From Candidatus Levybacteria bacterium RIFCSPHIGHO2_02_FULL_40_18 (GTDB lineage Bacteria; Patescibacteriota; Microgenomatia; Levybacterales; GWA1-39-11), in contig MFOC01000007.1 in the NCBI GenBank assembly GCA_001782235.1, positions 315,909-379,908 on the forward strand: a DNA stretch of 64,000 nucleotides. Direction: 5' to 3'. Of the stretch, positions 12,018 to 61,779 are shown piece by piece. The position numbers were made by a program, and so were the translations under genes. The notes beneath the pieces were generated by a model. The model made no database searches. It was not told where the DNA came from and worked only from the letters and a program-made list of their open reading frames with translations. Position 1 is the stretch's first letter. Every line of letters starts with the position of its first letter.

Positions 12018-12139
12018 ACAGAAAAAGGAAAGTGGTTATTTGAGATTAGAGAATAGTAATAGAAATTGGAAATTGGAGAATAGCTATTTTTCTATTCCCT
12101 ATTATCTATTTTCCATTACTAATTTTCATTTTCCAATAA

Positions 12140-13129
12140 CTATTTTCTAGATATAGCTTTTTTAACTGCTGCAATTACGGCGTCTTTGTCCATTTTGTAT
12201 TTTTTAATTAATTCGGCAGGTTTTCCCGATTCTCCAAAAGTATTTTGAAGACCAACGAATTCCATCGGGACAGATTTGTTTCGAACAAGAACTTCTGCAA
12301 TTGCACCTCCCAAGCCTCCTGTGATTTGATGGTCTTCTACTGAAACTGCGGTTCCTGCCTTTTGGGTGAGTTCGAGTATTGATTTTTCATCAATTGGTTT
12401 TATTGTTGAAACATTAGCAACAATCACTTCGATTCCTTGGATTGCGAGTTCTTTTGCGGCGAGGAGCGCCTGGTACAAGAGCCAGCCCATGCTAAAGATT
12501 ACTACCTGAGGTTTATTCGAAGTCCAAAAGACTTGAATTCTCCCGGGCTCAAAAGGAGTTTTTTCGGTGGTCATCACAGGGCTTTTGTCTCGAGTAAATC
12601 TTAGATAAACAGGCCCCTTTATTTTTCCTGCTTCAACAGTTGCTTTTTTGGCTTCAATTGCGTCACAGGGTACGAAAATCTTGATATTTGGCCATGCTCG
12701 GACTGACGCAATATCTTCTGTTGCTTGGTGAGTTGCACCATCAGGGCCTGTCATAATCCCCGAATGATGCCCTGCGATTTTAACATTTGAATCGTTATAT
12801 ATAATAGTTGTACGAATTGTTTCCCAATTCTTTCCGGGAGAAAAAGTTGCGTAAGATGAAATAAAGGCGGTTTTTCCTGAAATTCCAAGGCCGGCAGCGA
12901 TAGCGGCCATGTTTTGTTCGGCAACTCCCACTTCAAAAAAGCGGTCTGGGAATTTTTTAGCAAAGTCTTCAGATTTGGTCGACTCTGTTAAATCAGCACA
13001 AAGAACTACAACATTTGGATCTTGTTCGCCCAATTCTACAAGACCCGCGCCGTAGCCGGATCTCGTTGCATCCATCTCAACATCCTTATCAAAAAGTTTA
13101 GGGTTCAGTTTTAAATCAGGATTTAACAT
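12140..13129 (-). CDS. transketolase, C-terminal (pyrimidine-binding) subunit
   Basis: Transketolase Pyr and C-terminal domain motifs (FFEVGVAEQNMAAIAAGL..., GPDGATHQATEDIA). Pairs with the adjacent N-terminal subunit. Confidence 0.85.
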   Translation of the reverse strand: MLNPDLKLNPKLFDKDVEMDATRSGYGAGLVELGEQDPNVVVLCADLTESTKSEDFAKKFPDRFFEVGVAEQNMAAIAAGLGISGKTAFISSYATFSPGKNWETIRTTIIYNDSNVKIAGHHSGIMTGPDGATHQATEDIASVRAWPNIKIFVPCDAIEAKKATVEAGKIKGPVYLRFTRDKSPVMTTEKTPFEPGRIQVFWTSNKPQVVIFSMGWLLYQALLAAKELAIQGIEVIVANVSTIKPIDEKSILELTQKAGTAVSVEDHQITGGLGGAIAEVLVRNKSVPMEFVGLQNTFGESGKPAELIKKYKMDKDAVIAAVKKAISRK

Positions 13130-13133
13130 AATA

Positions 13134-13236
13134 AGAACTCAAAACTTAAAACTCAAAACTCAAATCTACAACTTTAAATCTTAAAACTTTTTAGATTTGA
13201 GATGTAGTTTTGACATTTGACATTTGAGATTTGACA
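13134..13236. repeat. family-B imperfect palindromic heptamer repeat (aaactca/aaactta ... agatttga/catttga) filling the gap between the two transketolase cistrons
   Basis: The left arm (aactcaaaacttaaaactcaaaactcaaatctacaactt) and right arm (agatttgagatgtagttttgacatttgacatttgagatttgac) are roughly reverse complements. Related fragments occur inside tsaE (54603-54650) and the SpoU gene (24781-24817). Confidence 0.75.
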
Positions 13237-13240
13237 TGAA

Positions 13241-27152: not shown

Positions 27153-27282
27153 ATTTTTCAGTTCTCTGTTCTCAGTTTTCGGTTTTCGGATCCCGGTTTA
27201 CCGGTCGTCAGTTTATCAGTTAAATTAGTATAACAAAGAGAAGTCATGTATTGTAAAGGGCAGAAACCAGTTTTGCAAGGGG

Positions 27283-28377
27283 TCAGTCGAAGTAGAGGTC
27301 GGGAAGGGCGGTGATTTTGTGCCAGTCGACTGGTTTGTAATTTAGGAGGGCATAGGCGCCGATCATGGCGGCATTGTCTGTAGCGTAAGTTTTTGCAGGA
27401 GCGGAAATCTTAGCCGTTGGCAGTTGGCTTTTGGCTGTTAGCTCGAACTGTTGGCGGAGGGTTTGGTTTGCGGATACGCCGCCACCAAGAAGAATATTGT
27501 TAATTTTGTACAATTTTGCTGCTCGAATAGTTTTTTTGATCAACACAGCAAAAATTGCCTCTTGTAAAGCATGGCAAACCTCATTAATTAACCTTTCGGT
27601 TAAATGTTTTTTAACAATAAATCTTGATATTTCAGTCTTTAGTCCTGAAAACGAAAAATCAAAATCCTCGGTATTAATTAATGGACTATGAAATTTGGCT
27701 GTTGGTTGTTGGTTGTTAGCTCGGCGCTCGATTTCGGGACCGGCCGGATAAGATAGGCCAAGAATTCGGCCGACTTTGTCGAGTGCTTCTCCTGCCGCGT
27801 CGTCTCGAGTCCCGCCAAGCCATTTGAATTTAGATGCTGATTCGAACAACAACAAATCAGTATGGCCTCCGGAGACAATAAGGCCGATGAAGGGGAACAT
27901 TTTTCCAGTATTCAGTATTGAGTATTCAGTATTGAGTATAAAATTAGCAAAGAGGTGTGCGAGGAGATGATGAACGGGAATTATTGGCTTGTCGAATGCA
28001 AAAGATAGGGTTTTTGCTGTTTCGACTCCAACGAGAAGTGAACCTATTAAACCGGGGCCACTGGTGACGGCAATGGCGTCGATAGACTTTTTAAGTATTT
28101 CATTTGCTCGTTCGAACTGTTTCGAATTGTTCAATTGTTTGATTGCTTCATTGTTGATCCCTTCGGAATTAAGAAGTGCGCGGACAATAACCGGAATTAT
28201 TGCTTTGATTTGTTCGCGGGCTGCGAATTCCGGAATTATTCCGCCAGTTTTGGCATGGAGACTTGAAGAGGTGGCGGTAACATTTGATAAAACCCTTACG
28301 AATTGTTCGTTGTCTTTTTTTTCAACTACAGCCGCCCCCGTTTCATCACAGCTAGTCTCAAGACTTAGTATTATCAT
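27283..28377 (-). CDS. tsaD: tRNA N6-adenosine threonylcarbamoyltransferase
   Basis: MIILSLETSCDETGAAVV, HHLLAH, SGGHT and DFSFSGLKT, all Kae1/TsaD hallmarks. The start is taken at MIILSL; the track ORF extends further upstream. Confidence 0.88.
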   Translation of the reverse strand: MIILSLETSCDETGAAVVEKKDNEQFVRVLSNVTATSSSLHAKTGGIIPEFAAREQIKAIIPVIVRALLNSEGINNEAIKQLNNSKQFERANEILKKSIDAIAVTSGPGLIGSLLVGVETAKTLSFAFDKPIIPVHHLLAHLFANFILNTEYSILNTGKMFPFIGLIVSGGHTDLLLFESASKFKWLGGTRDDAAGEALDKVGRILGLSYPAGPEIERRANNQQPTAKFHSPLINTEDFDFSFSGLKTEISRFIVKKHLTERLINEVCHALQEAIFAVLIKKTIRAAKLYKINNILLGGGVSANQTLRQQFELTAKSQLPTAKISAPAKTYATDNAAMIGAYALLNYKPVDWHKITALPDLYFD

Positions 28378-28610
28378 AAATTGTTTCGCCTGCCCCGTAT
28401 AAGCGTCCTCGCGACGCGAGGACGAAGACCTCGGGAGTAAGTAAGCTTTGTGCGGGGTCACAAGAGGTCTCAATAGCCAAAACTCTCATTGAAATAAAGA
28501 AATTGGTTGTAAGAAATTGGAAAATGGTTATGGAAACTAGATATTGGAAATTGGTTTGTTTTAAAAAACTATTTTCTATTTTCCTATAACTATTTTCTAT
28601 CTTCTCTTTG

Positions 28611-29081
28611 CTATATTCCCTTGAAAGTAATCTTGATGCCTTTTTTAATTCCCAATTTCTTAACCTGTCCGGCGTTTAATTCCAAAACTCGATTTACGGG
28701 TACGTCAGGAATGTAAATAGTTAAATTTGGAGTCTGGGCGCCTGGCGAGGCATTTTCGACGATATAAACGACCATATCGTCATCAATAAATATAATATCT
28801 ATGGGAAACTTCATGTCTCTCATCCAAAAGCCGTATGTCCCCTTTTTTTCAAAAATAAATAACATTCCCTGGTCTTCCGGTAAATTATTCCTTCCCGAGA
28901 GCCCCTTCGTTCTATCTTTGTCAGATTTTGCAAGAATCAGGCTTATCTTTTTGTTATTGACTTGCGCCTCGGCGCCCCCTTTAAACGGAATTAAAGATGG
29001 CAGATTTCCTCCGGCTTTAAAAACTGCAAGGAGAATAACTGCAATTATAAGTGCCACATAAACTATAATTAATTTCTTCAT
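28611..29081 (-). CDS. DUF192 domain protein
   Basis: Signal/TM N-terminus plus the DUF192 core (GMLFIF...GFWMRDMKFPIDIIFID). Confidence 0.65.
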   Translation of the reverse strand: MKKLIIVYVALIIAVILLAVFKAGGNLPSLIPFKGGAEAQVNNKKISLILAKSDKDRTKGLSGRNNLPEDQGMLFIFEKKGTYGFWMRDMKFPIDIIFIDDDMVVYIVENASPGAQTPNLTIYIPDVPVNRVLELNAGQVKKLGIKKGIKITFKGI

Positions 29082-29551
29082 ATTTTTTCTTCCAGTCTTG
29101 TTGTAGAGTAATTTTTAATCCTTGAAATTACTTCAACAAGGTTGCCGCCGACCATCTTAGCGTATCTTTTTTTAAGATTCGAAAGCGCATCGGTTTTTGT
29201 GACTGCAATTATATCAGGTTGGAGCGTTTTTACAAGTTCTTCATAGTCTTGATCGCGTCTAAAGTAGGGAAGAAGAATAACATAATCAACCATAATAAAT
29301 CTTGATAGCACAAAAGCTCTGTCTTCCTGTGTGTTGACCGGTCTATTTTTGCCTTTAATTTCCCTTGTCTTTAAATCACTCTCCAAGAGCGCAATTAAAA
29401 TATCTCCCTCTTTTTTTGCTGCTTCAAGAAACTCAACATGGCCTTTATGGATTAAATCAAATATTCCACCAACCAACACAATCCTTTGTCCCTGGTGTTT
29501 TATTTTTTTTATTGTCCTCGCTGCTTGTTCGACCGTAATTATTTTCCCCAT
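29078..29551 (-). CDS. cytidylyl/adenylyl-transferase-like nucleotidyltransferase (HldE domain II/RfaE-like)
   Basis: HxGH motif in GGIFDLIHKGHVEFL and the overall ~150-aa size of cytidylyltransferase-family enzymes. Confidence 0.6.
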   Translation of the reverse strand: MGKIITVEQAARTIKKIKHQGQRIVLVGGIFDLIHKGHVEFLEAAKKEGDILIALLESDLKTREIKGKNRPVNTQEDRAFVLSRFIMVDYVILLPYFRRDQDYEELVKTLQPDIIAVTKTDALSNLKKRYAKMVGGNLVEVISRIKNYSTTRLEEKI

Positions 29552-29584
29552 ATTCTTAAAGTCCTAAATTCTAATATCTAAATC

Positions 29585-29735
29585 ATAGTTAATAAGAAAT
29601 TGGTTGTTGGAAATAAGAAAATGGTAATAGAAATTAGATATTAGAAATTGGTTTTTATTTATTTTTATTTAACTATTGTCTATTTTCTACTTTCCATTAC
29701 TAATTTCCATTTTCCTATAACTATTTTCTAATATA
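29585..29735. repeat. family-A palindromic heptamer-periodic intergenic repeat (~150 bp), copy A3; near-identical inverted copy at 46495-46650, shorter variants at 12030-12150 and 28487-28612
   Basis: The reverse complement of 46502-46648 aligns almost base for base with 29592-29733. Shared blocks are tagaaattgg, aaaatggtaatagaaa, ccattactaatttccattttcc and ataactattttcta. Confidence 0.85.
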
Positions 29736-29739
29736 TTAA

Positions 29740-31161
29740 TTATTCTTTGGTTCCTCGCAAGAAAATCGCCTGCCATGGTCTGTATGAAGAAACGAAAACA
29801 TCGTTAATGACTACTTGTCCGTCTTTTGTGACGGTTCTTGAGAATACGGATTTTCCTCCCGGTGCCGCAAAATCCACTTGTTTCTCAACCCCTTTTGGCA
29901 AATTGGGATCGTCTTGATAAAGAGGGGGCGGAGCAGGTACAACATTTGTTACAACCGGTTGCGTTACCACGACTTTTCTTCCATCAGACTTCCCATAGAT
30001 AGTAAATGTGAGACTCATATTAATAGGGTCAATTAATCCCTGAATTAGTACGTGATTTCCGGTGTCATTTTTAAATTTGAAGTCAACGCTTGGAGCATAC
30101 ACCGTTGCGTCAAATCCGGGCAGAGAGTCTTGTTCGTAGTATCCTACCCGGTACGCATGTGCACGTCTTTCCGTAATTGGCAGGCCCGAGTTTAAAATTG
30201 CCCGAAATAAAGTTGTGGAAACCTGGCAAACTCCGCCTCCGTCTCCAAGCACGGTTCTCCCGTTCTGGATAACATATGCCTCCTTATACCCCGTGAATTT
30301 TGAGACATCGCCAAGAGCTTTATTAAATGAGAATTCTTCACCCGGAGCAATAAGTACTCCATTGATTCGTGATGTTGCTAAGTTTATGTTATAAAATCTA
30401 TTTGCAATTGACCCCACAAAAATAGATTTACCGGCACCAATATCCTCAACTATCCCTAAATTATTTGCCTCCTCTGTTGTCACATCAGGTTTTAAGATTT
30501 TAATTGGGACTTCAATCGCTATGGTTTTTATGTCTCTTTCTCTTATAATTTCTTTGATCCTTTTTCTTAGCTCTTTCTTCACAGCATCAATGTCAATAGT
30601 TTTTCCTTCACTTGATTCCTGGAATGCTACGACCCTGTTATTCTCCACTTTAAATTGAGCATCTTGGGGATCCACGTGAATTACTTTTCGGATTGGTTCA
30701 AGTTCCGCGGTAAGTTTTTCCTCATCAAGTGTATAAGTTGAGGAGAGAAAAGTGCCATTAATATAGGAAGAAAGCGTTATGTAGGTATCGCTGAAAAGAT
30801 TTTTTGTTTTTCCAAGGCTAAGCGCCTGTTCTGTTATTAGGTTGATGTCATATCCGATGTCAAGTTTTTTGGCCGAGACTGTCGCGACATATGAATCTTG
30901 AGAAAAAATAAAAGTGTTCTCCCCAATTTTCTGATTCTTCGCAAGAAAGATTTTCTCAATGTCGGCGCGGGATTTTTCTCCGATATAAACATTATCGATA
31001 AAGATGCCCGGAATGACCCTGTTTTTAAAGGTATGTTGAAAATAAAAAAGAATAAGAGAAGAAAGCACCATGCTCGCCAAAATAAATCCTATCAAAAACC
31101 AATAAGACGATTTTGCGACATGGTAAATCGTTTGTTTTTTACGGGGTGAAAGTCTTAGCAT
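29740..31161 (-). CDS. VanW-family protein
   Basis: N-terminal TM helix and the VanW core motif (GGGVCQVSTTLFRAILNSGLPITERRAHAY). Confidence 0.75.
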   Translation of the reverse strand: MLRLSPRKKQTIYHVAKSSYWFLIGFILASMVLSSLILFYFQHTFKNRVIPGIFIDNVYIGEKSRADIEKIFLAKNQKIGENTFIFSQDSYVATVSAKKLDIGYDINLITEQALSLGKTKNLFSDTYITLSSYINGTFLSSTYTLDEEKLTAELEPIRKVIHVDPQDAQFKVENNRVVAFQESSEGKTIDIDAVKKELRKRIKEIIRERDIKTIAIEVPIKILKPDVTTEEANNLGIVEDIGAGKSIFVGSIANRFYNINLATSRINGVLIAPGEEFSFNKALGDVSKFTGYKEAYVIQNGRTVLGDGGGVCQVSTTLFRAILNSGLPITERRAHAYRVGYYEQDSLPGFDATVYAPSVDFKFKNDTGNHVLIQGLIDPINMSLTFTIYGKSDGRKVVVTQPVVTNVVPAPPPLYQDDPNLPKGVEKQVDFAAPGGKSVFSRTVTKDGQVVINDVFVSSYRPWQAIFLRGTKE

Positions 31162-37554: not shown

Positions 37555-37593
37555 AACGAGATATAATTTAGTGATTAGGATTAAAGGATTAAA

Positions 37594-37878
37594 GTGATTA
37601 GTAATTATAAGGAGTTACTCTTTTGGCAAAGGGCTCATCAGGTCATATTGTTAGTGATAAAATTATGTAAAAATCTACCTAAGGATGGGATTTCGGTAAT
37701 TTTAATTAATCAAGTAATAAGAGCAGCGGGTTCAGTGGGGGCAAATATTGCTGAAGGCTTCGGAAGATATAAGGGGAAAGAGTATAAACGTTTTATTCAA
37801 ATCGCTTTAGGATCGGCGAACGAGACAGAATACTGGCTACTAGTAATTTCCGAAAGAAAATTAAACAACAAGCAATAA
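37594..37878 (+). CDS. four-helix-bundle protein (TIGR02436 / 23S rRNA IVS-protein family)
   Basis: ELLFWQRAHQVILLVIKL...VIRAAGSVGANIAEGFGRYKGKEYKRFIQIALGSANETEYWL. Confidence 0.7.
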   Translation: MISNYKELLFWQRAHQVILLVIKLCKNLPKDGISVILINQVIRAAGSVGANIAEGFGRYKGKEYKRFIQIALGSANETEYWLLVISERKLNNKQ

Positions 37879-37919
37879 CTAATCATTTTAGTCTTTTAGT
37901 CTTTTAATCTTAAACAATT

Positions 37920-39182
37920 ATGCTTGATATTAAGTTTATTCGGGAGAATCCGGATAAAGTTCGTGAAGGGGCAAAAAATAAAAATATCAATGTTCCGATT
38001 GATGAAATACTTCGTCTAGACCAAGAACATCGCGAATTGTCTCGGATACTCCAAGAATTGTATACCCAAAGAAACCGCGCCGCAAAAGAAAGAGATATTG
38101 AAGGCGGTCGGGAGGTTAAAGCAGAGGTTGATTCTAGCGAAGATAAACTTGGGAAAATCAAAGAAAGATTGGATGAACTTCTTTATGCCGTACCAAATTT
38201 GCCGGCCCTTGATGTAAAAATAGGAAAAGACGAATCGGAAAATGAGATTATTCGAAAAGTTGGTTCGCCGAAAAAGTTTTCATTCAAAGTTCGTGACCAT
38301 GTTGAGTTGGGAGAATTGCTTGAAATTATCGACCTTGAACGAGCAGCAAAAGTTTCCGGTACCCGATTCGCATATTTAAAAAATGAAGGAGTTCTTCTTG
38401 AATTCGCACTCGCCCAATTTGCCTTAGACAGCTTAATAAAGGAAGGATTTATTCCGATAATTCCGCCCGTGCTTATTAAGACGGAAACAATGAAAAAGGT
38501 CGGTTATATGGAACACGGTGGGGATGAGGACATGTTTCATATCGAAAAAGATGGTTTGACCCTCGTGGGAACTGCCGAGCATTCAATCGTCGCAATGCAT
38601 CAAGACGAAACATTTTTGGAACGTGATCTACCTGTAAGATATGTCGGGTTTTCATCTGCCTTCAGGCGTGAAGCGGGATCTTACGGCAAAGACACTCGGG
38701 GAATTCTTCGCGTCCACCAATTTGATAAAGTAGAAATGGTTTCATATACGACTCCTGAAAAGAGCGATAGTGAACAAGACTATCTTTTGAATATTGAAGA
38801 GAAGTTTTTTCAGGCGCTCAAGATCCCTTATCAAGTTGTCAAAATGTGTACAGCCGATTTAGGATTTGTTCAGGCCAAAAAATATGATATTGAAGCATGG
38901 ATTCCGTCTCAAGAGAAATATCGAGAGATGACCTCCGCATCGCATCTTACAGATTTTCAAGCAAGACGGTTGAATATTAAATTCCTGCCTGCCGGCAGGC
39001 AAGGCCAAAAAGGTTTGGAAAAAGAATTCATACACACTCTCAACGCCACAGGTTTTGCAATTGGCCGAACTTTAATTGCAATTCTTGAAAATTATCAAGA
39101 AAAGGATGGTTCAGTTGTTGTACCAGAAATTTTGCGAAATTACGTAAATATAGATAAGATTTCACCAAAGAAATTAAAATAG
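37920..39182 (+). CDS. serS: serine--tRNA ligase
   Basis: N-terminal coiled-coil arm and the class II core (FRREAGSYGKDTRGILRVHQFDKVE). Confidence 0.9.
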   Translation: MLDIKFIRENPDKVREGAKNKNINVPIDEILRLDQEHRELSRILQELYTQRNRAAKERDIEGGREVKAEVDSSEDKLGKIKERLDELLYAVPNLPALDVKIGKDESENEIIRKVGSPKKFSFKVRDHVELGELLEIIDLERAAKVSGTRFAYLKNEGVLLEFALAQFALDSLIKEGFIPIIPPVLIKTETMKKVGYMEHGGDEDMFHIEKDGLTLVGTAEHSIVAMHQDETFLERDLPVRYVGFSSAFRREAGSYGKDTRGILRVHQFDKVEMVSYTTPEKSDSEQDYLLNIEEKFFQALKIPYQVVKMCTADLGFVQAKKYDIEAWIPSQEKYREMTSASHLTDFQARRLNIKFLPAGRQGQKGLEKEFIHTLNATGFAIGRTLIAILENYQEKDGSVVVPEILRNYVNIDKISPKKLK

Positions 39183-39579
39183 TTAAAATGGTTGGAATAG
39201 TTGAATGGTTTTGATAGCCATGTAACCATGTAGCTATTTTAGCCATTGGCTCTTTTGATTTTTGTTGATTTATCAGTCTAAACCTTAATTTTCGAAGCAG
39301 GCAATTTTCTTGACAAAATTTTTTATTTTTTTCACGATTAAATTGGAGCATAATAAGTTCTAGTTTGAGATACTGTTTGGTCCGCCAGACCTTACTTTAG
39401 GGCTTTTCAGTATTATTCATACACGCCCTAAAGAGCGGTCTTCGGCGGACGTAAGAAACTGTAAACTCACTTTACAGTTCGTTAACAGTTTCTAACGGAG
39501 GTGATATTTTCATGGCAAGAAAAAAAGCAAAGAGAAGGAAGAGGAGATAAAATAAATTCCAAAGAATGATCATCTTTTG

Positions 39580-39610
39580 GATAAAAGAGTCCCGCACCAG
39601 AATTGGTGCG
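39580..39610 (+). terminator. Rho-independent terminator-like hairpin
   Basis: tcccgcacca-gaat-tggtgcggga followed by a ttttta T-run. Confidence 0.6.
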
Positions 39611-39737
39611 GGATTTTTATACTCCTCCATTCGTATTTTAGCCTCATTTATGGTAAAATTGAAAGTCAACCGAATTTTAGGATAGTAATCTTGTTGACTT
39701 TCATCCCGAACTTGATTCGGGATCTCATATTCTAATT

Positions 39738-44804: not shown

Positions 44805-45677
44805 ATGGATTCTTCAGGACACTATAGAAAGCTTGCGGATAAGTGGATCAAGCGGCACCGTGATTTTCAGGAACAGTTGTGGGCTTCGCACGGAGATGCA
44901 ATAAATGACTTTATAAACAGCACAAAAAATTTTGCCATTGGGTCAATCTCGGGGCTAATGCTTTTATCAAGTCCAGCCGCAAATTTAATTGGGCCAGTCA
45001 GTGCGCTGACGGTCGAAGAACAAAAATTACCCGTAGATAAAAGCGCTTTTTTGGCCTCAGATGTTCTTTCTGTTTTGCCAAAGGAGGTTCGTCCATTAAC
45101 GCCGGAAGAAGAAAATTCCATTTCTCAGATTTTTACTCGGGATTTTGGGTTTAAAGTCGCACATGAACTTTCAGGTATTCGATTGAATCGATCATATGGT
45201 TATATAGGGGCCGAGCAGCATCTGGCGCGATATCCCGGTGACACAATGACTACTCATTTCGAGGATAGTTCGGATAGTTCAAAATTCTATTCGTCCGGAA
45301 TGGCACCGGGACTGGGTGCCTGGGGTTATTTTGCAAATTCTCGTTCGGAATTAACCCAAAAAGACATAGATCGTGAGAAATATTATATTGCCGTTCAAAC
45401 ATTTCTTGCTCCGGGATTCGCGGAGCACACGGGAAAATACATTACTTTTTTTAAATTTCGGAAAATGCTTGTAGTGAATCCTCATACCGGGCGTGCTATA
45501 GTAGTGGTGATAGGTGATGCCGGACCCGCTGAATGGACTGGAAAGAGTTTGGGCGGGTCGCCCGAGGTTATGAAGTATCTTGAGCGTGTTGACGGTAGCG
45601 GGAGAGGGCCGGTTCTGTATTTTTTTATAGACGATCCAGAAGACAAGGTTCCACTGGGACCAATCGAAATTAAATAG
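44805..45677 (+). CDS. hypothetical protein with possible RlpA-like double-psi beta-barrel domain
   Basis: The C-terminal segment LVVNPHTGRAIVVVIGDAGPAEWTGKSLGGSPEVMKYL resembles the DPBB pattern V.V.N..NGR.V.V.V.DRGP. Confidence 0.35.
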   Translation: MDSSGHYRKLADKWIKRHRDFQEQLWASHGDAINDFINSTKNFAIGSISGLMLLSSPAANLIGPVSALTVEEQKLPVDKSAFLASDVLSVLPKEVRPLTPEEENSISQIFTRDFGFKVAHELSGIRLNRSYGYIGAEQHLARYPGDTMTTHFEDSSDSSKFYSSGMAPGLGAWGYFANSRSELTQKDIDREKYYIAVQTFLAPGFAEHTGKYITFFKFRKMLVVNPHTGRAIVVVIGDAGPAEWTGKSLGGSPEVMKYLERVDGSGRGPVLYFFIDDPEDKVPLGPIEIK

Positions 45678-45740
45678 TTAAAATGGTTAAAATAGTTAGA
45701 ATAGTTCAAAACCATGTAGCCATTTAACTATTTAGCTATT
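45672..45740. repeat. family-C repeat (aaatagttaaaatggtt ... aaccatgtagccat ... aactatttagctatt), copy C2; other copies 39178-39250, 50536-50625, 52268-52312, 59403-59478
   Basis: Five copies, each starting at or overlapping the stop codon of a + strand gene. Some contain an in-frame ATGGCTAAATGG. Confidence 0.8.
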
Positions 45741-46080: not shown

Positions 46081-46464
46081 ATGGCATACAAAAAAATAGA
46101 TAAACCCAGATTGCTTGAAGGGGAGACTGTCGAAGCCCGATGGGATCCAAAGAAAATAATAATAGGAGTTGTAATCCTTGCAGCATTGGGCCTTTTGGGA
46201 GCAATAATGTTGACCGGAATCGGAAGACAAGGTTCGGTAAGTGGTCGAGAGACTTTGGGTACAACAAACGAAGCGCCATCCCTCCCATCATCTGAGAATA
46301 TTGAAAGGATTATCCGTGAAACCCGTGAAACAATGTCCAATATAACTGCCGATAATCTTACCTCCTCACAGGCGGCAATCCAGAAGATGATTTCAGATCT
46401 TGAAATTCTTCAAGGGAAAAAAGATGTAAAAGACGTAATTTGCGAGTTAATCTGTAAGAAATAA
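46081..46464 (+). CDS. hypothetical membrane-anchored protein
   Basis: 127 aa with a single TM helix (IIIGVVILAALGLLGAIMLTGI). Its start overlaps the upstream stop (TAAAATGG). Confidence 0.4.
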   Translation: MAYKKIDKPRLLEGETVEARWDPKKIIIGVVILAALGLLGAIMLTGIGRQGSVSGRETLGTTNEAPSLPSSENIERIIRETRETMSNITADNLTSSQAAIQKMISDLEILQGKKDVKDVICELICKK

Positions 46465-46684
46465 ATTCAAATTCCTAAATTCTAAAAAATATATCAATAT
46501 ATTATTAGAAAATAGTTACAGGAAAATGGAAATTAGTAATAGAAAGTAGAAAATAGAAAGTAGTTAAATAAAAATAAATAAAAACCAATTTCTAATATCT
46601 AATTTCTATTACCATTTTCTTATTTCCAACAACCAATTTCTTATTGACAGAATTTTGATATTCGAATTTAGGATTTAAAATAGT

Positions 46685-47950
46685 ATGCTGAAGAAACTTA
46701 AAAAACTTCTATCGTTGCTGGGGCCGGGATTCATTACCGGCGCATCGGATGATGACCCATCGGGAATTGCAACATATGCCCAAACTGGCGCACAATTCGG
46801 ATATTCCCAGCTTTGGACCGCACCTTTCTCTTTTCCCTTCATGACGGCAATTCAAGAGATGTGTGGAAGAATAGGGCTCGTAACAGGAAAGGGGCTTTCG
46901 GGCGTTATCAAAAAATATTATTCAAGGCCCGTTCTCTACATTGCTGTTTTAATTCTTTTTACCGCGAACACTGTGAATATAGGGGCAAATCTTGGGGCAA
47001 TGGCAAGCGCGGCTGGTTTATTATTCGACATACCTTTTATTTTCTGGCTTGTGGGAATGACCGTTTTAACTTTAATTCTTGAAGTTTTTGTATCATATAA
47101 ACTTTATTCAAAATACCTAAAGTATCTTGCGTTCTCACTTTTTGCATATGTGCTGGTGGTGTTTGTAGTAAGACAGAATTGGGAGCAAATAATAGCTTCA
47201 ACAATTGTCCCAAGTTTCGCTCTAAGTGGTAGTTATCTACTTAATATTGTTGCAATTTTGGGAACTACAATTTCTCCATATCTTTTTTTCTGGCAAGAGA
47301 CAGAGGAGGTTGAGGAGGAAGTCGAAAAAGGTAAGATCATGGGGATTGGGCGAGGTATACCAAAAGTATTAAAAAGAGACATTAGAATCATGAGAATAGA
47401 CACGGTTATCGGAATGTTTTTCTCGAATCTTGTAATGTTCTTTATTATCGCGACTGTCGCATCAACCCTTTATGCTTCAGGGATCCATAATATAAACACG
47501 GCCGATCAAGTGGCCGAAGCACTCAGACCATTAGCAGGAGATTTTGCCTATCTGCTTTTTGCGGCAGGAATAATTGGGACCGGTCTTCTTTCTGTTCCAA
47601 TCCTGGCAGGTTCGGCGTCATATGCGCTAGCCGAAGCTCTTGGGTGGCGCGAAGGATTGTATCGAAAGTTAAAACAGGCTCATGGATTTTATGGTGCAAT
47701 AACTATTGCAACGCTGATTGGCTTACTTGTGAATTTTTTGCATATACCGCCATTTCAAATGCTTTATTACACAGCCGTACTCAACGGGATCGCCGCTCCG
47801 CCGCTTATTATTCTTATTTTATTAATCTCAAACAACAAAAAAATCATGGGCGGACGCACCAATTCGACACTTTCGAATGCATTGGGAATAACAATAACTG
47901 CAGTTATGTCTTTCGCCGCATTAGCCCTCCTCTTTGATCTCATTTTTTGA
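46685..47950 (+). CDS. mntH: NRAMP-family divalent metal (Mn2+/Fe2+) transporter
   Basis: NRAMP signature LGPGFITGASDDDPSGIATY and 11-12 predicted TM helices. Confidence 0.82.
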   Translation: MLKKLKKLLSLLGPGFITGASDDDPSGIATYAQTGAQFGYSQLWTAPFSFPFMTAIQEMCGRIGLVTGKGLSGVIKKYYSRPVLYIAVLILFTANTVNIGANLGAMASAAGLLFDIPFIFWLVGMTVLTLILEVFVSYKLYSKYLKYLAFSLFAYVLVVFVVRQNWEQIIASTIVPSFALSGSYLLNIVAILGTTISPYLFFWQETEEVEEEVEKGKIMGIGRGIPKVLKRDIRIMRIDTVIGMFFSNLVMFFIIATVASTLYASGIHNINTADQVAEALRPLAGDFAYLLFAAGIIGTGLLSVPILAGSASYALAEALGWREGLYRKLKQAHGFYGAITIATLIGLLVNFLHIPPFQMLYYTAVLNGIAAPPLIILILLISNNKKIMGGRTNSTLSNALGITITAVMSFAALALLFDLIF

Positions 47951-50540: not shown

Positions 50541-50629
50541 CTAAATAGTTAGAATAGCTAAATGGCTACATGGTTTTATTTTTATGTTCAGCTATTTAAC
50601 CATTCAACTATTTTAGCTATTTTTATTCG

Positions 50630-53544: not shown

Positions 53545-53592
53545 AAATAGTATCTAGATATTAGATACTAGATATTAGATAATAGGTGCGAA

Positions 53593-54411
53593 ATGATGAG
53601 ACGATTCTTGTTGGTTTTATTCTTGATTTCGGTGACCTTTTTTATTTTACCCAGCGAAATATATGCTTCTATTACAATTAACGAATTCAGTTCTAGTACG
53701 TCTAGCGATGACTGGGTAGAAATATATTTTGAGAGCGAAGACACTGCATTATATCAGCTAGTAGATGCTTCGGATAATACAAAAAACTTATCAGATGGAA
53801 GTTGTTCTGGTAATTTTTGTACAGTTGATTGGTCGAACAGATTAAATAATAATGGCGACACAATAAAACTTCGGCTGATATCCTCTAGTTCAGTCGTGGA
53901 TGAAATAACTTACGGGAATGATTCACTATCGGCTCCATCTGATGGGCAAACGGTCGGTCGACTTCCGGATGGAACAGGTTCGTTTGTGATGTTGTCTTCT
54001 TCATCGAAAGGGAGTTCGAATAATTCTTCGAATGCTGTAGTCTCGCCGACGGCGACGCCAACTAATACACCCACGCCTACGGATTCGCCGGATCCAACAA
54101 ACACGCCTACACCTACAAAAACTCCCACCCCAAAAAAGACGCCAACCCCGACTAAAAGACCAACCCCAACCCCTACAAAACTACAAGAGAAAGAGGCGGG
54201 GACGGATGATTTATTTGTTGCTGGCGAGACCAAAATTGCGCTTGATAAGTCTCCTACGCCTTCTGGAGTCACTGAGATTTTGGGAGAAAGCACATCAAAA
54301 CAGCCCCTTATTTTTATCGGCCTTGGGGCAATAGTTCTTGCAGTGTGCGGAATTCTTGCATATTTCCAGTTTGGAAACAAAATCCTTGTATGGAAGAAAC
54401 AGAATTTATAA
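53593..54411 (+). CDS. secreted lamin-tail-domain (LTD) protein with Pro/Thr-rich linker and C-terminal membrane anchor
   Basis: Signal peptide; LTD motif (SITINEFSSSTSSDDWVEIYFESED ... NNGDTIKLR); a (TPTP)n linker; a C-terminal hydrophobic helix. Confidence 0.7.
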   Translation: MMRRFLLVLFLISVTFFILPSEIYASITINEFSSSTSSDDWVEIYFESEDTALYQLVDASDNTKNLSDGSCSGNFCTVDWSNRLNNNGDTIKLRLISSSSVVDEITYGNDSLSAPSDGQTVGRLPDGTGSFVMLSSSSKGSSNNSSNAVVSPTATPTNTPTPTDSPDPTNTPTPTKTPTPKKTPTPTKRPTPTPTKLQEKEAGTDDLFVAGETKIALDKSPTPSGVTEILGESTSKQPLIFIGLGAIVLAVCGILAYFQFGNKILVWKKQNL

Positions 54412-54878
54412 CTCGCTCGGCGAGAGAAACAGAAGATTTAGGTTCAAAACTTGCTCATAACTTTCGAATCGGTAATATTATTGTGTTGACGGGCGAACTA
54501 GGGGCAGGAAAAACTACCTTTGTTCAGGGGGTAGGCAAAGCATTTAATATTAAAAGCCGAATCATTTCGCCTACATTTATTTTGGTTAGAAGACACAAAG
54601 TGAAACTCAAAACTCAAAACTCAAAACTCAAAACTACAACTCCCCTCGATGAAACTCGGGGCAAGCAAAACTTAAAAACTCTCTATCATATTGATTTATA
54701 TCGGCTGGAGGATTCGGAGGAAATTAAAAATTTGGGGCTCGAGGAGATTTTTGAAGATCCGAACGCCATTTTTTTCGTCGAGTGGGGAGAAAAACACGAG
54801 GAGTTGAAAGCCTCTTGGGAAATAAACTTCGAGATCCTTGAGAAAGACAAGAGACGTATAACGCTCAAACATGAATAA
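54390..54878 (+). CDS. tsaE: tRNA threonylcarbamoyladenosine biosynthesis ATPase TsaE
   Basis: P-loop LTGELGAGKTTFVQG and the conserved SPTF..V..H...LYHIDLYRL. Carries a ~20-aa insertion encoded by a heptamer tandem repeat. Confidence 0.85.
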   Translation: MEETEFITRSARETEDLGSKLAHNFRIGNIIVLTGELGAGKTTFVQGVGKAFNIKSRIISPTFILVRRHKVKLKTQNSKLKTTTPLDETRGKQNLKTLYHIDLYRLEDSEEIKNLGLEEIFEDPNAIFFVEWGEKHEELKASWEINFEILEKDKRRITLKHE

Positions 54879-55787: not shown

Positions 55788-55929
55788 AAGTTTGGGTTTT
55801 GGTTTGTGTTTGGGCTGCTAGTATAGTCATGGTTTGGGTCTTGGGTTAAATTACCAAAAACCAAACCCTCTTACCATACGAGCTGCTCCACCCATACCCT
55901 TAAACTATAACTTTTGATATGATAAAACT

Positions 55930-58394: not shown

Positions 58395-59408
58395 ATGAGA
58401 TTGTTAGTCACCGGTGGAGCTGGATTTATCGGTTCGAATTTTATTCTTTATTGGTTAAAAAACCATCCAGAAGATGAAATTGTAAACTTTGATAAGCTAA
58501 CTTATGCAGGAAACCTTGAGAACTTAAAAAGTATCGAGGGCACTCCGAATTATAAGTTTGTAAAAGGTGATATTGCAAATGCGGATGATGTCGCGGCAGT
58601 AATTCTCGGGATTGATATTGTTGTTCATTTTGCCGCAGAAAGTCATGTTGACCGTTCAATTCATGATTCTGCCCCATTCATCATGACAAACGTCGCCGGG
58701 ACTCAAATTCTCCTTGACGCTGCGCTTAAAAATAATGTTAAAAGGTTCCACCATGTCAGTACGGATGAGGTTTTTGGATCACTAGAATTGAACGATCCGA
58801 ACAAATTTAATGAACGAACAAATTATAACCCCAGAAGTCCTTATTCGGCAAGTAAAGCCGGTTCGGATCATTTGGTTAGTGCTTATTATTATACATACAA
58901 TCTTCCGATTACAATTACAAACTGCTCAAACAATTTCGGTCCGTATCAGTTCCCTGAAAAAATTATTCCTCTTGCAATCACTAATCTTCTTGAAGGAAAA
59001 AAAGTTCCAATATACGGAGATGGTTTGTATGTTCGCGATTGGCTTTATGTGGAGGATCATGTAAAGGCAATCGAAGCGGTTCTTGACAAAGGAAAAATCG
59101 GCGAAACTTATCTTATAGGTGGCATGACAGAAGATATTCCTAACATTGAAGTTGCCAAAAAAATTGTTCGCATTTTAGGAAAATCGGAAGGTGATATTGA
59201 ATTTGTTAAGGATCGTCCCGGACATGACAGGCGTTATGCTATTGATTGGTCAAAAATTAAAAACGAGTTAGGCTGGAAGCCACTCCATGATTTTGACACG
59301 TGGCTTAAGAAAACAGTAGAGTGGTATAAAGAGAATGAAGATTGGTGGAGAGAGGTAAAGAGCGGTGAATATCAGAAGTACTATGAAAAACAGTACAATA
59401 ATAAATAG
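58395..59408 (+). CDS. rfbB: dTDP-glucose 4,6-dehydratase
   Basis: LVTGGAGFIGSNF Rossmann motif, YSASKAGSDHL catalytic YxxxK and HVSTDEVFG. Confidence 0.88.
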   Translation: MRLLVTGGAGFIGSNFILYWLKNHPEDEIVNFDKLTYAGNLENLKSIEGTPNYKFVKGDIANADDVAAVILGIDIVVHFAAESHVDRSIHDSAPFIMTNVAGTQILLDAALKNNVKRFHHVSTDEVFGSLELNDPNKFNERTNYNPRSPYSASKAGSDHLVSAYYYTYNLPITITNCSNNFGPYQFPEKIIPLAITNLLEGKKVPIYGDGLYVRDWLYVEDHVKAIEAVLDKGKIGETYLIGGMTEDIPNIEVAKKIVRILGKSEGDIEFVKDRPGHDRRYAIDWSKIKNELGWKPLHDFDTWLKKTVEWYKENEDWWREVKSGEYQKYYEKQYNNK

Positions 59409-59479
59409 CTATATAGCTTAAATGGTTAAAATAGTTTTAAAACTATTTAGCTATTCAACTATTTAGCTATTTTTATATT

Positions 59480-60418: not shown

Positions 60419-60489
60419 GCTTGTAGGCCCTCTCCTAAAATCCTCTCCCTTGAGGGAAAGGAAAGAAGAAGAAAGGCGGAATGCATATT

Positions 60490-61779
60490 ATGAAAATCGC
60501 TTTTGTTGGTCACGGATATGTCGGACTTGTCACGGCCGCTGTTTTTGCCGATTTTGGAAATGAAGTTTTTGTCATCGGGCATACAAAAAAGAAGGTTGAA
60601 GACTTAAAACGGGGAATAATTCCTTTTTATGAGCCGGGACTTTCAGAATTAGTTAAAAAAAACATAGAGGCAAAAAGATTGAATTTTACACTTGATTACA
60701 CGCCTTCTGTGCCAGAGTCTGATGCCGTATTCATAGCTGTTGGGACTCCTGCAACTCTGACAGGGGACGCAGATTTATCAACGGTTCTTGAGGTTGCGCA
60801 AGAGATAGGAAAAAATCTTGAAGGCTATACTGTGGTTGCAACAAAGAGTACGGTTCCAACGGGGACAAATAAAAAAGTTCAGAAGATTCTTGAGGAGGCA
60901 AAGCCTCGCGGAGCAGAAGTTGACTACGCATCAGTTCCTGAGTTTTTACGCGAGGGAAGCGCGATTTCGGACACCATGAACCCAGATAGAGTTGTCATAG
61001 GGACTGAGTCTGCCCGCGCTCAAGAAGTTTTAATTAAATTACATGAACCAATTGGCGCGCCAATTCTTTTAACCAATTTCGAAACGGCAGAACTTATAAA
61101 ATATGCCTCTAACTCTTTTTTGGCGCTAAAGATTTCCTATGCCAATGCTATAGCAAAACTCTCAGAACTCGTGGGAGCAGATGCTTTAAAAGTTCTCGAG
61201 GGATTAGGTATGGATAAAAGAATTGGTAACATGTTTTTAGCTCCAGGACCGGGGTACGGAGGAAGTTGTTTCCCAAAAGATGTAAAAGCACTTATATCAA
61301 TTGCAAAGGATAATGATTATGCCTTTTCATTACTCGAAGAGGTGGAAAACATAAATCATCAGGCAAGGCGCGACATCGTTCGAAAAGCTCGAAAAATTTT
61401 AGGGGATGTTAGGGGCAAAAAGATTGGGATTTTTGGACTTGCTTTTAAGCCGAACACTGATGATATGAGATATGCTCCAAGCATAGATATAATCACAATG
61501 CTTACGAATGATGGAGCAAAGATAACCGCGTTTGACCCAAAAGCCCACAATAACGCAAAAGACGTTCTATCTAATATAGCTTATGCAGATGATATGTATT
61601 CTGTTTCAGACGATGCGGATCTATTAATCTTGTTAACCGAGTGGAATGAATTTCGCGAGATAAATTTTAATGAAATAAAGAAGCGTATGAAAGCACTTAA
61701 CATTATTGATGGCCGCAATATTTATGACCCTGAGCAACTTCGCGCGCTTGGTTTCAATTATGTGGGAGTTGGTAGATGA
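60490..61779 (+). CDS. ugd: UDP-glucose 6-dehydrogenase (nucleotide-sugar dehydrogenase family)
   Basis: IAFVGHGYVGLVTAAVFA Rossmann motif and the catalytic GGSCFPKD. Confidence 0.85.
   Translation: MKIAFVGHGYVGLVTAAVFADFGNEVFVIGHTKKKVEDLKRGIIPFYEPGLSELVKKNIEAKRLNFTLDYTPSVPESDAVFIAVGTPATLTGDADLSTVLEVAQEIGKNLEGYTVVATKSTVPTGTNKKVQKILEEAKPRGAEVDYASVPEFLREGSAISDTMNPDRVVIGTESARAQEVLIKLHEPIGAPILLTNFETAELIKYASNSFLALKISYANAIAKLSELVGADALKVLEGLGMDKRIGNMFLAPGPGYGGSCFPKDVKALISIAKDNDYAFSLLEEVENINHQARRDIVRKARKILGDVRGKKIGIFGLAFKPNTDDMRYAPSIDIITMLTNDGAKITAFDPKAHNNAKDVLSNIAYADDMYSVSDDADLLILLTEWNEFREINFNEIKKRMKALNIIDGRNIYDPEQLRALGFNYVGVGR

Follow-up and report, generated by a model that had tools for sequence, protein, structure and literature searches.

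A heptamer-periodic palindromic element in intercistronic spacers of a Levybacterium, and its relation to four-helix-bundle genes

Short gaps between genes of Candidatus Levybacteria bacterium RIFCSPHIGHO2_02_FULL_40_18 hold copies of a palindrome of about 150 bp, one of them at positions 29585-29735 of the 64,000-nucleotide stretch of DNA analysed here (the window). What kind of element is this, how did it come to lie in these gaps, and how might it be tolerated there? An earlier note, made from the sequence alone, had suggested either a recently active, non-autonomous mobile element of the MITE/REP type or a conserved signal for transcription punctuation.

Four related palindromes in the window

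Four related imperfect palindromes are present in the window, at about 12.0, 28.5, 29.6 and 46.5 kb (12023-12149, approximately 28490-28599, 29588-29733 and 46503-46648), as the earlier note had described. We refer to them as family A, and to the individual copies as 12k, 28k, 29k and 46k. In a repeat search of the window, the 29k core (29588-29733) and 46k (46503-46648) are 97% reverse-complementary over 146 nt, which bears out the inverted near-identity noticed for this pair, and the same search ties 12023-12149 and 28486-28599 to these two copies at 60-88%. A 22-mer common to all copies, ATTTTCCNNTAACTATTTTCTA, occurs six times at three mismatches or fewer, against 0.02 occurrences expected. 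The copies and their adjoining segments are:

12018-12149, no strand assigned: family-A copy 12k, an old copy, found at the same position in two other Levybacteria
28490-28599, no strand assigned: family-A copy 28k, shorter and diverged, 81% identical to the left arm of 29k, with weak periodicity
29552-29585, minus strand: extension of 29k on the side of the downstream gene, about 76% identical to the matching stretch of 46k
29586-29743, no strand assigned: family-A copy 29k, core 29588-29733, a young insertion with empty sites in relatives
46465-46502, no strand assigned: outer left arm of a second palindrome that encloses 46k, AAATTCCTAAATTCT...
46503-46648, no strand assigned: family-A copy 46k, inverted in the window relative to 29k
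46649-46684, plus strand: outer right arm of the palindrome that encloses 46k, GATATTCGAATTTAGGATTT...

An assembly artefact, raised by the earlier note as a possible objection, can be set aside. An independent JGI assembly of another sample (L002) reproduces 20.5 kb of the sequence, including the 28k and 29k copies, with a difference of 1 nt, and we conclude from this that the repeats are not artefacts of assembly. The window sequence is also identical to contig MFOK01000002.1 of GCA_001782345.1.

Each copy folds as one long imperfect hairpin, with -33 to -43 kcal/mol on the better strand and z scores of -5.1 to -6.8; none of 200 shuffled sequences folded as well as a family-A copy. Raw folding energies from a sliding-window scan were uninformative, because they follow GC content. 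The claim that the palindromes are built of 7-nt units holds firmly for three copies, in which the lag-7 periodicity is strong (z 6.3 for 12k, 5.4 for 29k and 5.3 for 46k; lag-7 identity 0.55-0.56, against a window-wide mean of 0.27), and weakly for 28k (z only 2.4; identity 0.43). The units are degenerate, not perfect, and the consensus of the purine-rich arm is a series of about eight units of the form T-R-G-A-A-A-W. Mismatches between one arm and the other fall at the degenerate R and W positions and are common to all copies. A and T predominate in the stems, where only about every seventh position is a G-C pair. Between 29k and 46k just four positions differ, all of them in the 5' arm as read on the sense strand, and the two copies have the same orientation relative to their respective flanking genes.

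All four copies lie in short gaps between co-directional genes, as previously noted, and none contains an ORF. The fit to the neighbouring genes is close. The 12k copy takes in the final 10 nt (CTAGAAAATAG) of the transketolase C-subunit coding sequence and the TAG stop (12140-12142), and its stem stops 9 nt short of the FAD-oxidase ATG; the proposal that the terminus of the element supplies this stop codon was borne out, the coding sequence ending TCT AGA AAA TAG in three species. The parallel proposal for the DUF192 gene was not. Its stop (28611-28613) lies 12 nt outside the 28k copy, which ends at 28599 and lies between that stop and the relic tsaD start (ATG at 28489). A supposed fragment of the element in frame within tsaD, at 27693-27722, also proved mistaken: it shares only an 11-mer with the element and lies in a linker that is variable, and the orthologues are at least as long as the window protein, which means that this segment is not an insertion. 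The outermost pairing of 29k extends to the TAA stop (29740-29742) of the VanW-like gene.

The likeness of 29k and 46k continues beyond their cores, at about 76% identity over 41 nt up to the downstream ATG, and this stretch includes the motif TTTAGGA 10-11 nt before the ATG. A Shine-Dalgarno (SD)-like AGGA is found accordingly at 29562-29565 (minus strand), 10 nt ahead of the CTP_transf ATG and within the 29k extension, and at 46670-46673, 11 nt ahead of the NRAMP ATG and within the outer right arm around 46k. The palindrome that encloses 46k (AAATTCCTAAATTCT... / ...GAATTTAGGATTT) resembles an element in the DUF192/TsaD spacer of a relative.

Family A is not the only periodic sequence in the window, which also contains:

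39164-39254, 45659-45740, 50541-50629 and 59398-59479: family B, period 8-9
13130-13240: family C, period 7, z 8.2
27153-27282, 53545-53592 and 55788-55929: shorter tracts

Most of the periodic tracts in the window are palindromic, 27153-27282 being periodic and not palindromic, and many of them begin at or include a TAG stop. The tsaE gene product of the window carries an in-frame 54-nt heptamer array together with a hairpin insertion. For the protein encoded at 60481-61779, a look-up found nothing on record.

Insertion, dispersal and change in place

We asked what occupies the same spacers in related Levybacteria. The spacer between the VanW and CTP_transf genes is 188 nt long in the window and 3-7 nt long in five related loci (TAA-CCT-ATG, or 4-7 nt), all of which retain the gene order VanW, CTP_transf, DUF192, TsaD, TopA, SpoU, with the neighbouring protein 63-76% identical. 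The spacer upstream of NRAMP measures 220 nt in the window, 80 nt in one relative (L120, 89% identity) and 28 nt in another (L121, 83% identity); the 80-nt spacer is a different, (TAGNNNN)n palindrome, and the 28-nt spacer has no palindrome. A further relative (L119) matches the window upstream of NRAMP and L120 downstream of it, and so does not count as independent evidence. At about eight orthologous spacers L121 has only 7-44 nt, and the window and L120 carry different periodic fillers there. Judged by these comparisons with related Levybacteria, 29k and 46k are insertions. The 12k copy, by contrast, is found at the orthologous spacer in two other species, in which the neighbouring gene is 88-89% identical. 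Since 12k has been kept across species and the 29k and 46k sites are empty or otherwise filled in relatives, the family has both old and young copies, here one old and two young.

Family A is also dispersed well beyond this contig. When species-representative genomes were scanned for exact matches to a pattern, another Levybacteria MAG proved to have four copies (L007, L008, L022 and L023). Orthology of these with the window copies was rejected, as tblastn of the window proteins found no flanking genes in common. A scan of groundwater and sediment metagenomes returned 76 loci with at least 28 full-length copies, 26 of them unique, in unrelated flanks, and half-copies besides. About 13 of the 76 matches are coding and read ITNFHFP; we take these to be queA. 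Empty sites in relatives, together with copies in unrelated flanks in other genomes and metagenomes, support the suggestion of a recently active, non-autonomous mobile element.

The junctions are less informative. At the 29k site, 188 nt stand in place of CCT and AAGAATA recurs at both junctions, and a reading of this heptamer as a target duplication needs an extra 5-nt deletion. At 46k the spacer is wholly replaced relative to relatives, and no target-site duplication is definable. In the two youngest copies flanking similarity is confined to one side, so the boundaries of the element are not sharp. Neither the annotated genes of the window nor those of the related and element-adjacent loci that we fetched include a transposase, and no RAYT (Y1 transposase) gene was seen in the 64-kb window or the roughly 3 kb upstream of it, together about 67 kb of source contig. 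A phage or viral origin was dropped: blastn found no match in a phage collection, and there was no exact pattern match in viral contigs.

Arrays of this kind also change where they stand. Orthologous copies in two contigs (L039 and L046) differ by 14-nt indels, indels are multiples of 7, and many arrays seem to start from a local stop codon, from which we conclude that in-situ slippage contributes. Slippage clearly reshapes the arrays. Could it have built them? On such an account slippage amplifies 7 nt around a stop codon, a template switch makes the inverted arm, and likeness between loci reflects gene conversion or convergence and not mobility. The 14-nt indels are what this would produce, as are arrays that begin with or include the upstream TAG and a unit that varies by locus (aacTAG TGACTAG GGACTAG... 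in L120; from ...AAATAG in family B). Heptanucleotide repeats are, moreover, reported to be the commonest class of long simple sequence repeats in prokaryotes, and slippage has been proposed for them (Mrazek 2007, as cited in PMC4679880). However, the same arm of about 60 nt, with its particular mismatches, is found again in dozens of contigs and at non-orthologous loci of another MAG; the 188-nt block stands against 3 nt in relatives, with no intermediate stages; and the window itself holds two unlinked loci with unrelated flanks that share 146 nt at 97% identity. Slippage alone cannot account for the last of these observations, and we regard growth in situ as an unlikely origin of the family.

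Four-helix-bundle genes between periodic arrays

In three metagenome contigs (L105, L093 and L090) the arms of family A are separated not by a short loop but by an ORF of 133-149 codons. The encoded protein matches PF05635, the 23S rRNA intervening-sequence protein (E 2.5e-15 and 1.8e-14), and also TIGR02436, four helix bundle protein. This is the only kind of ORF that we found between family-A arms, and these ORF-bearing forms of family A occur in metagenome contigs, with none in the source contig. The window does contain a related cassette:

37560-37915, plus strand: related ORF-bearing cassette with a PF05635/TIGR02436 gene at 37594-37878 (E 1.4e-25), between Ham1 and SerRS

The gene at 37594-37878 is flanked by mutually complementary short-period arrays, GGATTAAAG... 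upstream and CTTTTAGTC... downstream, whose unit differs from that of family A. L120 has a PF05635 gene inserted where the window and L121 have none, flanked by AGTATTC... and ...GAATACT arrays, the AGTATTC array containing the TAG of the upstream gene. A similar array-flanked layout surrounds PF05635 genes in another contig (L074, with TTAACGA units), in two Bacteroidota MAGs and in a TA06 MAG.

For a test unbiased by pattern searches, we used 12 tblastn matches on PLSDB plasmids, from Nostoc (two), Leptolyngbya, Geminocystis, Pseudanabaena, Picosynechococcus, Bernardetia, Chondrinema, Riemerella, Chlorohelix, Gemmatirosa and Treponema. All 12 plasmids, which span Cyanobacteriota, Bacteroidota, Chloroflexota, Spirochaetota and Gemmatimonadota, showed period-7/8 arrays on both sides of the four-helix-bundle gene, and in each the gene was co-directional with its neighbours. 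Where both neighbours are annotated, the gene usually lies between related host genes (cas10 and cmr3; cas6 and cas4; an RND adaptor and a permease). Of the two arrays, the upstream one is usually purine-rich and extends as far as the ATG, and the downstream one is usually complementary to it. Complementarity of the arms is clear in most of these loci, with duplex z scores of -2.0 to -8.7 where computed; the exceptions are Nostoc 7120, in which the arms are not complementary, Treponema, in which complementarity is marginal, and Pseudanabaena, in which the arrays are direct and not inverted. Periodicity reached p ≤ 0.015 in 19 of 23 flanking spacers, compared with 0 of 8 other spacers of the same loci. 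Every PF05635/TIGR02436 gene examined, in about eight phyla, lies between period-7/8 arrays, which are usually inverted.

To our knowledge, the four-helix-bundle protein has no nuclease or recombinase activity, and it may be cargo rather than driver. Within the part of the journal literature that our search covered, we found no published link between this gene family and heptamer arrays. TCAGTTA, present in the Chondrinema arrays, is the reverse complement of TAACTGA, the repeat described in MacGregor 2015.

Hairpin, tolerance and origin

A long hairpin formed by the RNA is plausible on the folding models, and its geometry relative to genes is regular. In 16 of 18 co-directional loci, the upstream stop and the downstream start are each no more than about 15 nt from the base of the stem; being close to both, the hairpin fills the whole intercistronic spacer. 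Covariation provided no sign that the structure as such is selected. Arm complementarity is 0.73-0.90 within copies, not above the 0.75-0.91 between copies in a swap test; the RNAalifold covariation term for family A is -0.08; and 21 of 34 pairs are invariant, with changes on both sides of a pair no more frequent than in shuffles. With swap test, RNAalifold and pair counts all lacking a signal, we gave up covariation as proof of a selected hairpin, bearing in mind that when most pairs are invariant the test says little either way. As far as alignments can tell, the hairpin is conserved as sequence, and selection on structure gains no support from covariation.

For each of the four copies in the window, folding is better by 10-15 kcal/mol, through G-U pairs, on the strand antisense to the genes. 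A function as antisense RNA or as template-strand single-stranded DNA, considered because of this asymmetry, was rejected: orientation in the metagenome loci is evenly divided and the energy difference has no consistent sign. Because the sense arm reads UAG or UGG every 7 nt, a (UAG-N4)n binding site for a HutP-like protein was also considered, but we saw no such protein among the annotated genes. TIGR-Tas arrays have a unit of about 36 nt with spacers and lie near a tas gene; as guide arrays of this type they were considered for family A, and nothing of the kind was seen there.

Could the hairpins instead serve the host as cis-regulatory devices, whether as unconventional terminators or attenuators, mRNA-stabilising 3' hairpins, RNase III sites or translational couplers? 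Much in their appearance would suit operon punctuation: stems that run exactly from stop to start, a stability far above that of shuffled sequence, an SD-like motif supplied by the young copies, and the retention of 12k at one spacer in three species. However, orthologous copies differ in arm length, orientation relative to the flanking genes is 9:9 among the 18 co-directional loci, covariation is lacking, and the element is missing from the same spacers of close relatives in which the operon is otherwise intact. The stems also lack a T-run and GC-richness, and no terminator-like site (a GC-rich stem followed by a run of T) was found in 28300-29900 or 46300-46800. No promoter-like sites coincide with the elements. 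An Rfam scan of the window brought only a tRNA-Pro to gathering score, and the only match at E ≤ 1 in 28350-29800 was to a sub-threshold plant snoRNA model, RF02539, outside the elements. Terminator, promoter and Rfam explanations were dropped, these scans having given nothing at the elements. The conserved punctuation signal of the earlier note has little in its favour, and we think regulatory hairpins maintained for host benefit improbable.

Nor did the MITE/REP label hold up. Family A does share with MITEs a small non-coding sequence, inverted symmetry at its ends, dispersed copies and presence/absence polymorphism at orthologous sites, and transposases that act on single-stranded DNA hairpins (IS200/IS605, REP/RAYT) recognise imperfect palindromes, but mobilisation in trans by a transposase elsewhere in the genome (DDE, IS200/IS605 Y1 or RAYT) is very unlikely for elements that have neither fixed termini nor a definable target-site duplication, lack a transposase in the annotated genes of the window and of the fetched element-adjacent loci, are much longer than a REP and without a GTAG head, and have PF05635 as the only ORF found between their arms.

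We favour a different explanation, to which we assign a probability of roughly 0.55: family A would be the ORF-less relative of a palindromic cassette resembling the intervening sequences (IVSs) of 23S rRNA, which invades intercistronic spacers, is co-transcribed with the surrounding genes and loops out as an RNA hairpin. The element is envisaged as a dispersed selfish sequence, an imperfect palindrome of 110-150 bp with arms made of inverted degenerate-heptamer arrays; its ORF-bearing form would have a PF05635/TIGR02436 (S23p/Avd-like) gene between the same arms. Copies would enter the very short stop-to-start spacer between consecutive genes of an operon and, once co-transcribed, their arms would pair into one long hairpin. 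The base of that hairpin would bring the upstream stop and the downstream start back together, and we propose that the insertion is tolerated for this reason. Tolerance might be achieved in either of two ways, by the hairpin looping out or being melted by the terminating ribosome, or by RNase III cutting it as it cuts the stems of rRNA IVSs. Young copies in addition bring TTTAGGA before the downstream ATG, where this SD-like motif may act as a ribosome-binding site.

Several known palindromic repeats bear comparison with family A. Correia elements of Neisseria have defined 26-bp terminal inverted repeats and a TA duplication, and their transcript hairpin has been reported as an RNase III substrate. 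They resemble family A in size (about 100-150 bp), inverted termini, copy number and position between co-transcribed genes, and in that they can supply expression signals, whereas family A is palindromic throughout and heptamer-periodic, has no detectable duplication and shows no sequence similarity to them. REPs are short (20-40 nt), carry a conserved GTAG head, are linked to a Y1 transposase and can stabilise upstream mRNA. Like family A, REPs and BIMEs are extragenic imperfect palindromes that follow stop codons inside operons; unlike them, family A is 110-150 nt long, AT-rich and heptamer-periodic, with no head of the GTAG type. Rickettsia palindromic elements (RPEs) are not heptamer-periodic, are typically intragenic and can land in frame. 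They share with the window repeats a palindromic form and a reduced host genome, and the in-frame insertion in the TsaE of the window is comparable to them, whereas the family-A copies are intercistronic.

The closest likeness is to the IVSs of 23S rRNA in Leptospira, Coxiella, Xanthomonas and Brucella, which are described as selfish insertions whose inverted repeats pair into a stem that RNase III cuts; some of them carry an S23p ORF, for which a role in mobility has been suggested as a possibility (PMC4990558). Family A would match them as a selfish insertion with complementary termini and a long stem. In both, the ORF, when present, belongs to PF05635/TIGR02436, forms with and without it coexist, and a sporadic distribution suggests horizontal spread. 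They differ in site and in construction: IVSs occupy helix 9, 25 or 45 of 23S rRNA, whereas family A lies between protein-coding genes, with no rRNA in the window, and the termini of IVSs are unique inverted repeats, whereas the arms of family A are degenerate-heptamer arrays. Excision of family A from the transcript by RNase III would be predicted by analogy.

Heptanucleotide arrays offer a second parallel. TAACTGA repeats are found immediately before start codons in Beggiatoaceae, Cyanobacteria and Bacteroidetes (PMC4679880), and the GGGAATC repeats of Xanthomonas are 89-93% intergenic, about 28 nt from the upstream ORF and mostly between co-oriented genes, with 70-75 convergent pairs able to form stem-loops (PMC4692102). 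Together with the cyanobacterial STRR and Nostoc GGGGAYT arrays, these resemble family A in a period of 7, an intergenic position, for the most part with ORFs of the same orientation on either side and near the 3' end of the upstream one or just before a start codon, and a length that varies among relatives. They are near-perfect tandem copies of one unit, whereas family A has a fixed degenerate set of about eight units per arm that is copied whole. An association with the four-helix-bundle gene is not reported for such arrays in PMC4692102 or PMC4679880.

That family A has arms in common with four-helix-bundle genes points to a cross-phylum family of selfish gene cassettes. A bolder and more doubtful idea is that the heptamer arrays of Cyanobacteria (STRR), Xanthomonas, Beggiatoaceae and Bacteroidota, the IVSs of 23S rRNA and the palindromes of the candidate phyla radiation (CPR) constitute one ancient class of mobile cassettes, with TIGR02436/PF05635 (Avd-like, pentameric) as its sole gene. 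If so, the protein might recognise the flanking arrays and promote their spread or amplification, and family A would be made up of non-autonomous passengers. Spread might then use hairpin-bounded RNA and a reverse transcriptase acting in trans, by analogy with Avd and the reverse transcriptase of diversity-generating retroelements.

For the annotation of CPR MAGs these elements matter in a practical way, as they break assemblies and shift the calling of gene starts, as at tsaD here. For the biology of the organism, our analysis indicates that selfish DNA is still being gained by a CPR genome as small and streamlined as this one, in the 3-nt gaps of translationally coupled operons, and that a hairpin restoring the juxtaposition of stop and start, with an imported ribosome-binding motif, may be what makes such gains tolerable. 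The cross-phylum association of gene and arrays is the part most deserving of follow-up. It gives a handle on two old puzzles, the nature of intergenic heptamer repeats and the role of the '23S rRNA intervening-sequence protein', and, if the link is causal, thousands of genes annotated as 'four helix bundle protein' and many tracts of simple repeats would be parts of one class of element.

Heptamer arrays within and before genes, and a duplicated tsaD start

54590-54660: in-frame heptamer-array insertion inside TsaE (54345-54878, plus strand)
28377-28489, minus strand: duplicated tsaD start region, between the 28k family-A palindrome and tsaD
27153-27282: non-palindromic heptamer-periodic tract adjoining the TopA start codon

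The TsaE gene in the window contains an in-frame insertion of 54 nt (18 aa), consisting of an (AAACTCA)n heptamer array and a GC hairpin, that is present in one related Levybacteria locus (L120) and missing from another (L121). Because of this insertion, we conclude that heptamer-array elements are able to insert in frame within genes, a mode of landing that resembles that of Rickettsia RPEs. Similarity links the TsaE array to the family-C palindrome (period 7, 13130-13240), one arm of which it matches.

The tsaD gene has two starts on the minus strand: a relic ATG at 28489, which encodes MRVLAIETSCD, and the real start at about 28377, which reads MIILSLETSCDET... and lies 3' of the 80-nt GC-rich segment that separates the two. 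This segment includes a perfect palindrome, GTCCTCGCG-T-CGCGAGGAC. The N-termini of TsaD from relatives match the relic start more closely than the real one, and two related Levybacteria loci (L112 and L116) have a 72-nt GC-rich leader at the equivalent position. The duplication looks like an insertion that arrived with a further copy of codons 1-11 inside it.

Upstream of TopA, the sense strand of the heptamer tract reads GAAAACC GAAAACT GAGAACA GAGAACT and reaches the start codon, the same placement as that of published TAACTGA repeats. The TopA spacer of relatives is 45-137 nt long and differs in content.

Family-B palindromes and neighbouring elements

39164-39254, 45659-45740, 50541-50629 and 59398-59479: family-B palindrome copies (period 8-9, units TTAAAATRG)
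37594-37878 (cassette 37560-37915): PF05635/TIGR02436 four-helix-bundle gene, between Ham1 and SerRS
39255-39737: long SerRS-SecA spacer with GC-rich structured segments

All four family-B copies in the window start at the TAG stop codon of the upstream gene, and the copies also resemble one another over about the last 18 nt of the coding sequence before it. The 50.5k copy has a conserved orthologue in L120 and none in L121. An ENA scaffold (L119) carries a sequence identical to that of the window on the upstream side of NRAMP and, in the NRAMP/RF spacer, one identical to that of L120. Either this scaffold comes from a recombinant strain or its assembly is chimeric, the junction lying inside NRAMP.

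Complementary short-period arrays flank the four-helix-bundle gene on both sides, and its GTG start falls within the upstream array. Within the SerRS-SecA spacer, a small ORF is predicted on the minus strand (39472-39669), and no Rfam family matched at gathering score. An RNA gene missing from the annotation may lie here.

Recurrence in distant phyla

The exact 22-mer ATTTTCCNNTAACTATTTTCTA was found in MAGs of Bacteroidota, TA06, Saccharibacteria and Nealsonbacteria, often in several copies per MAG. These occurrences lie in similar ATAGAAAATGG... / ...CCATTTTCTAT arrays. This recurrence across distant phyla points to one of two histories: horizontal spread, or a heptamer unit that has converged strongly.
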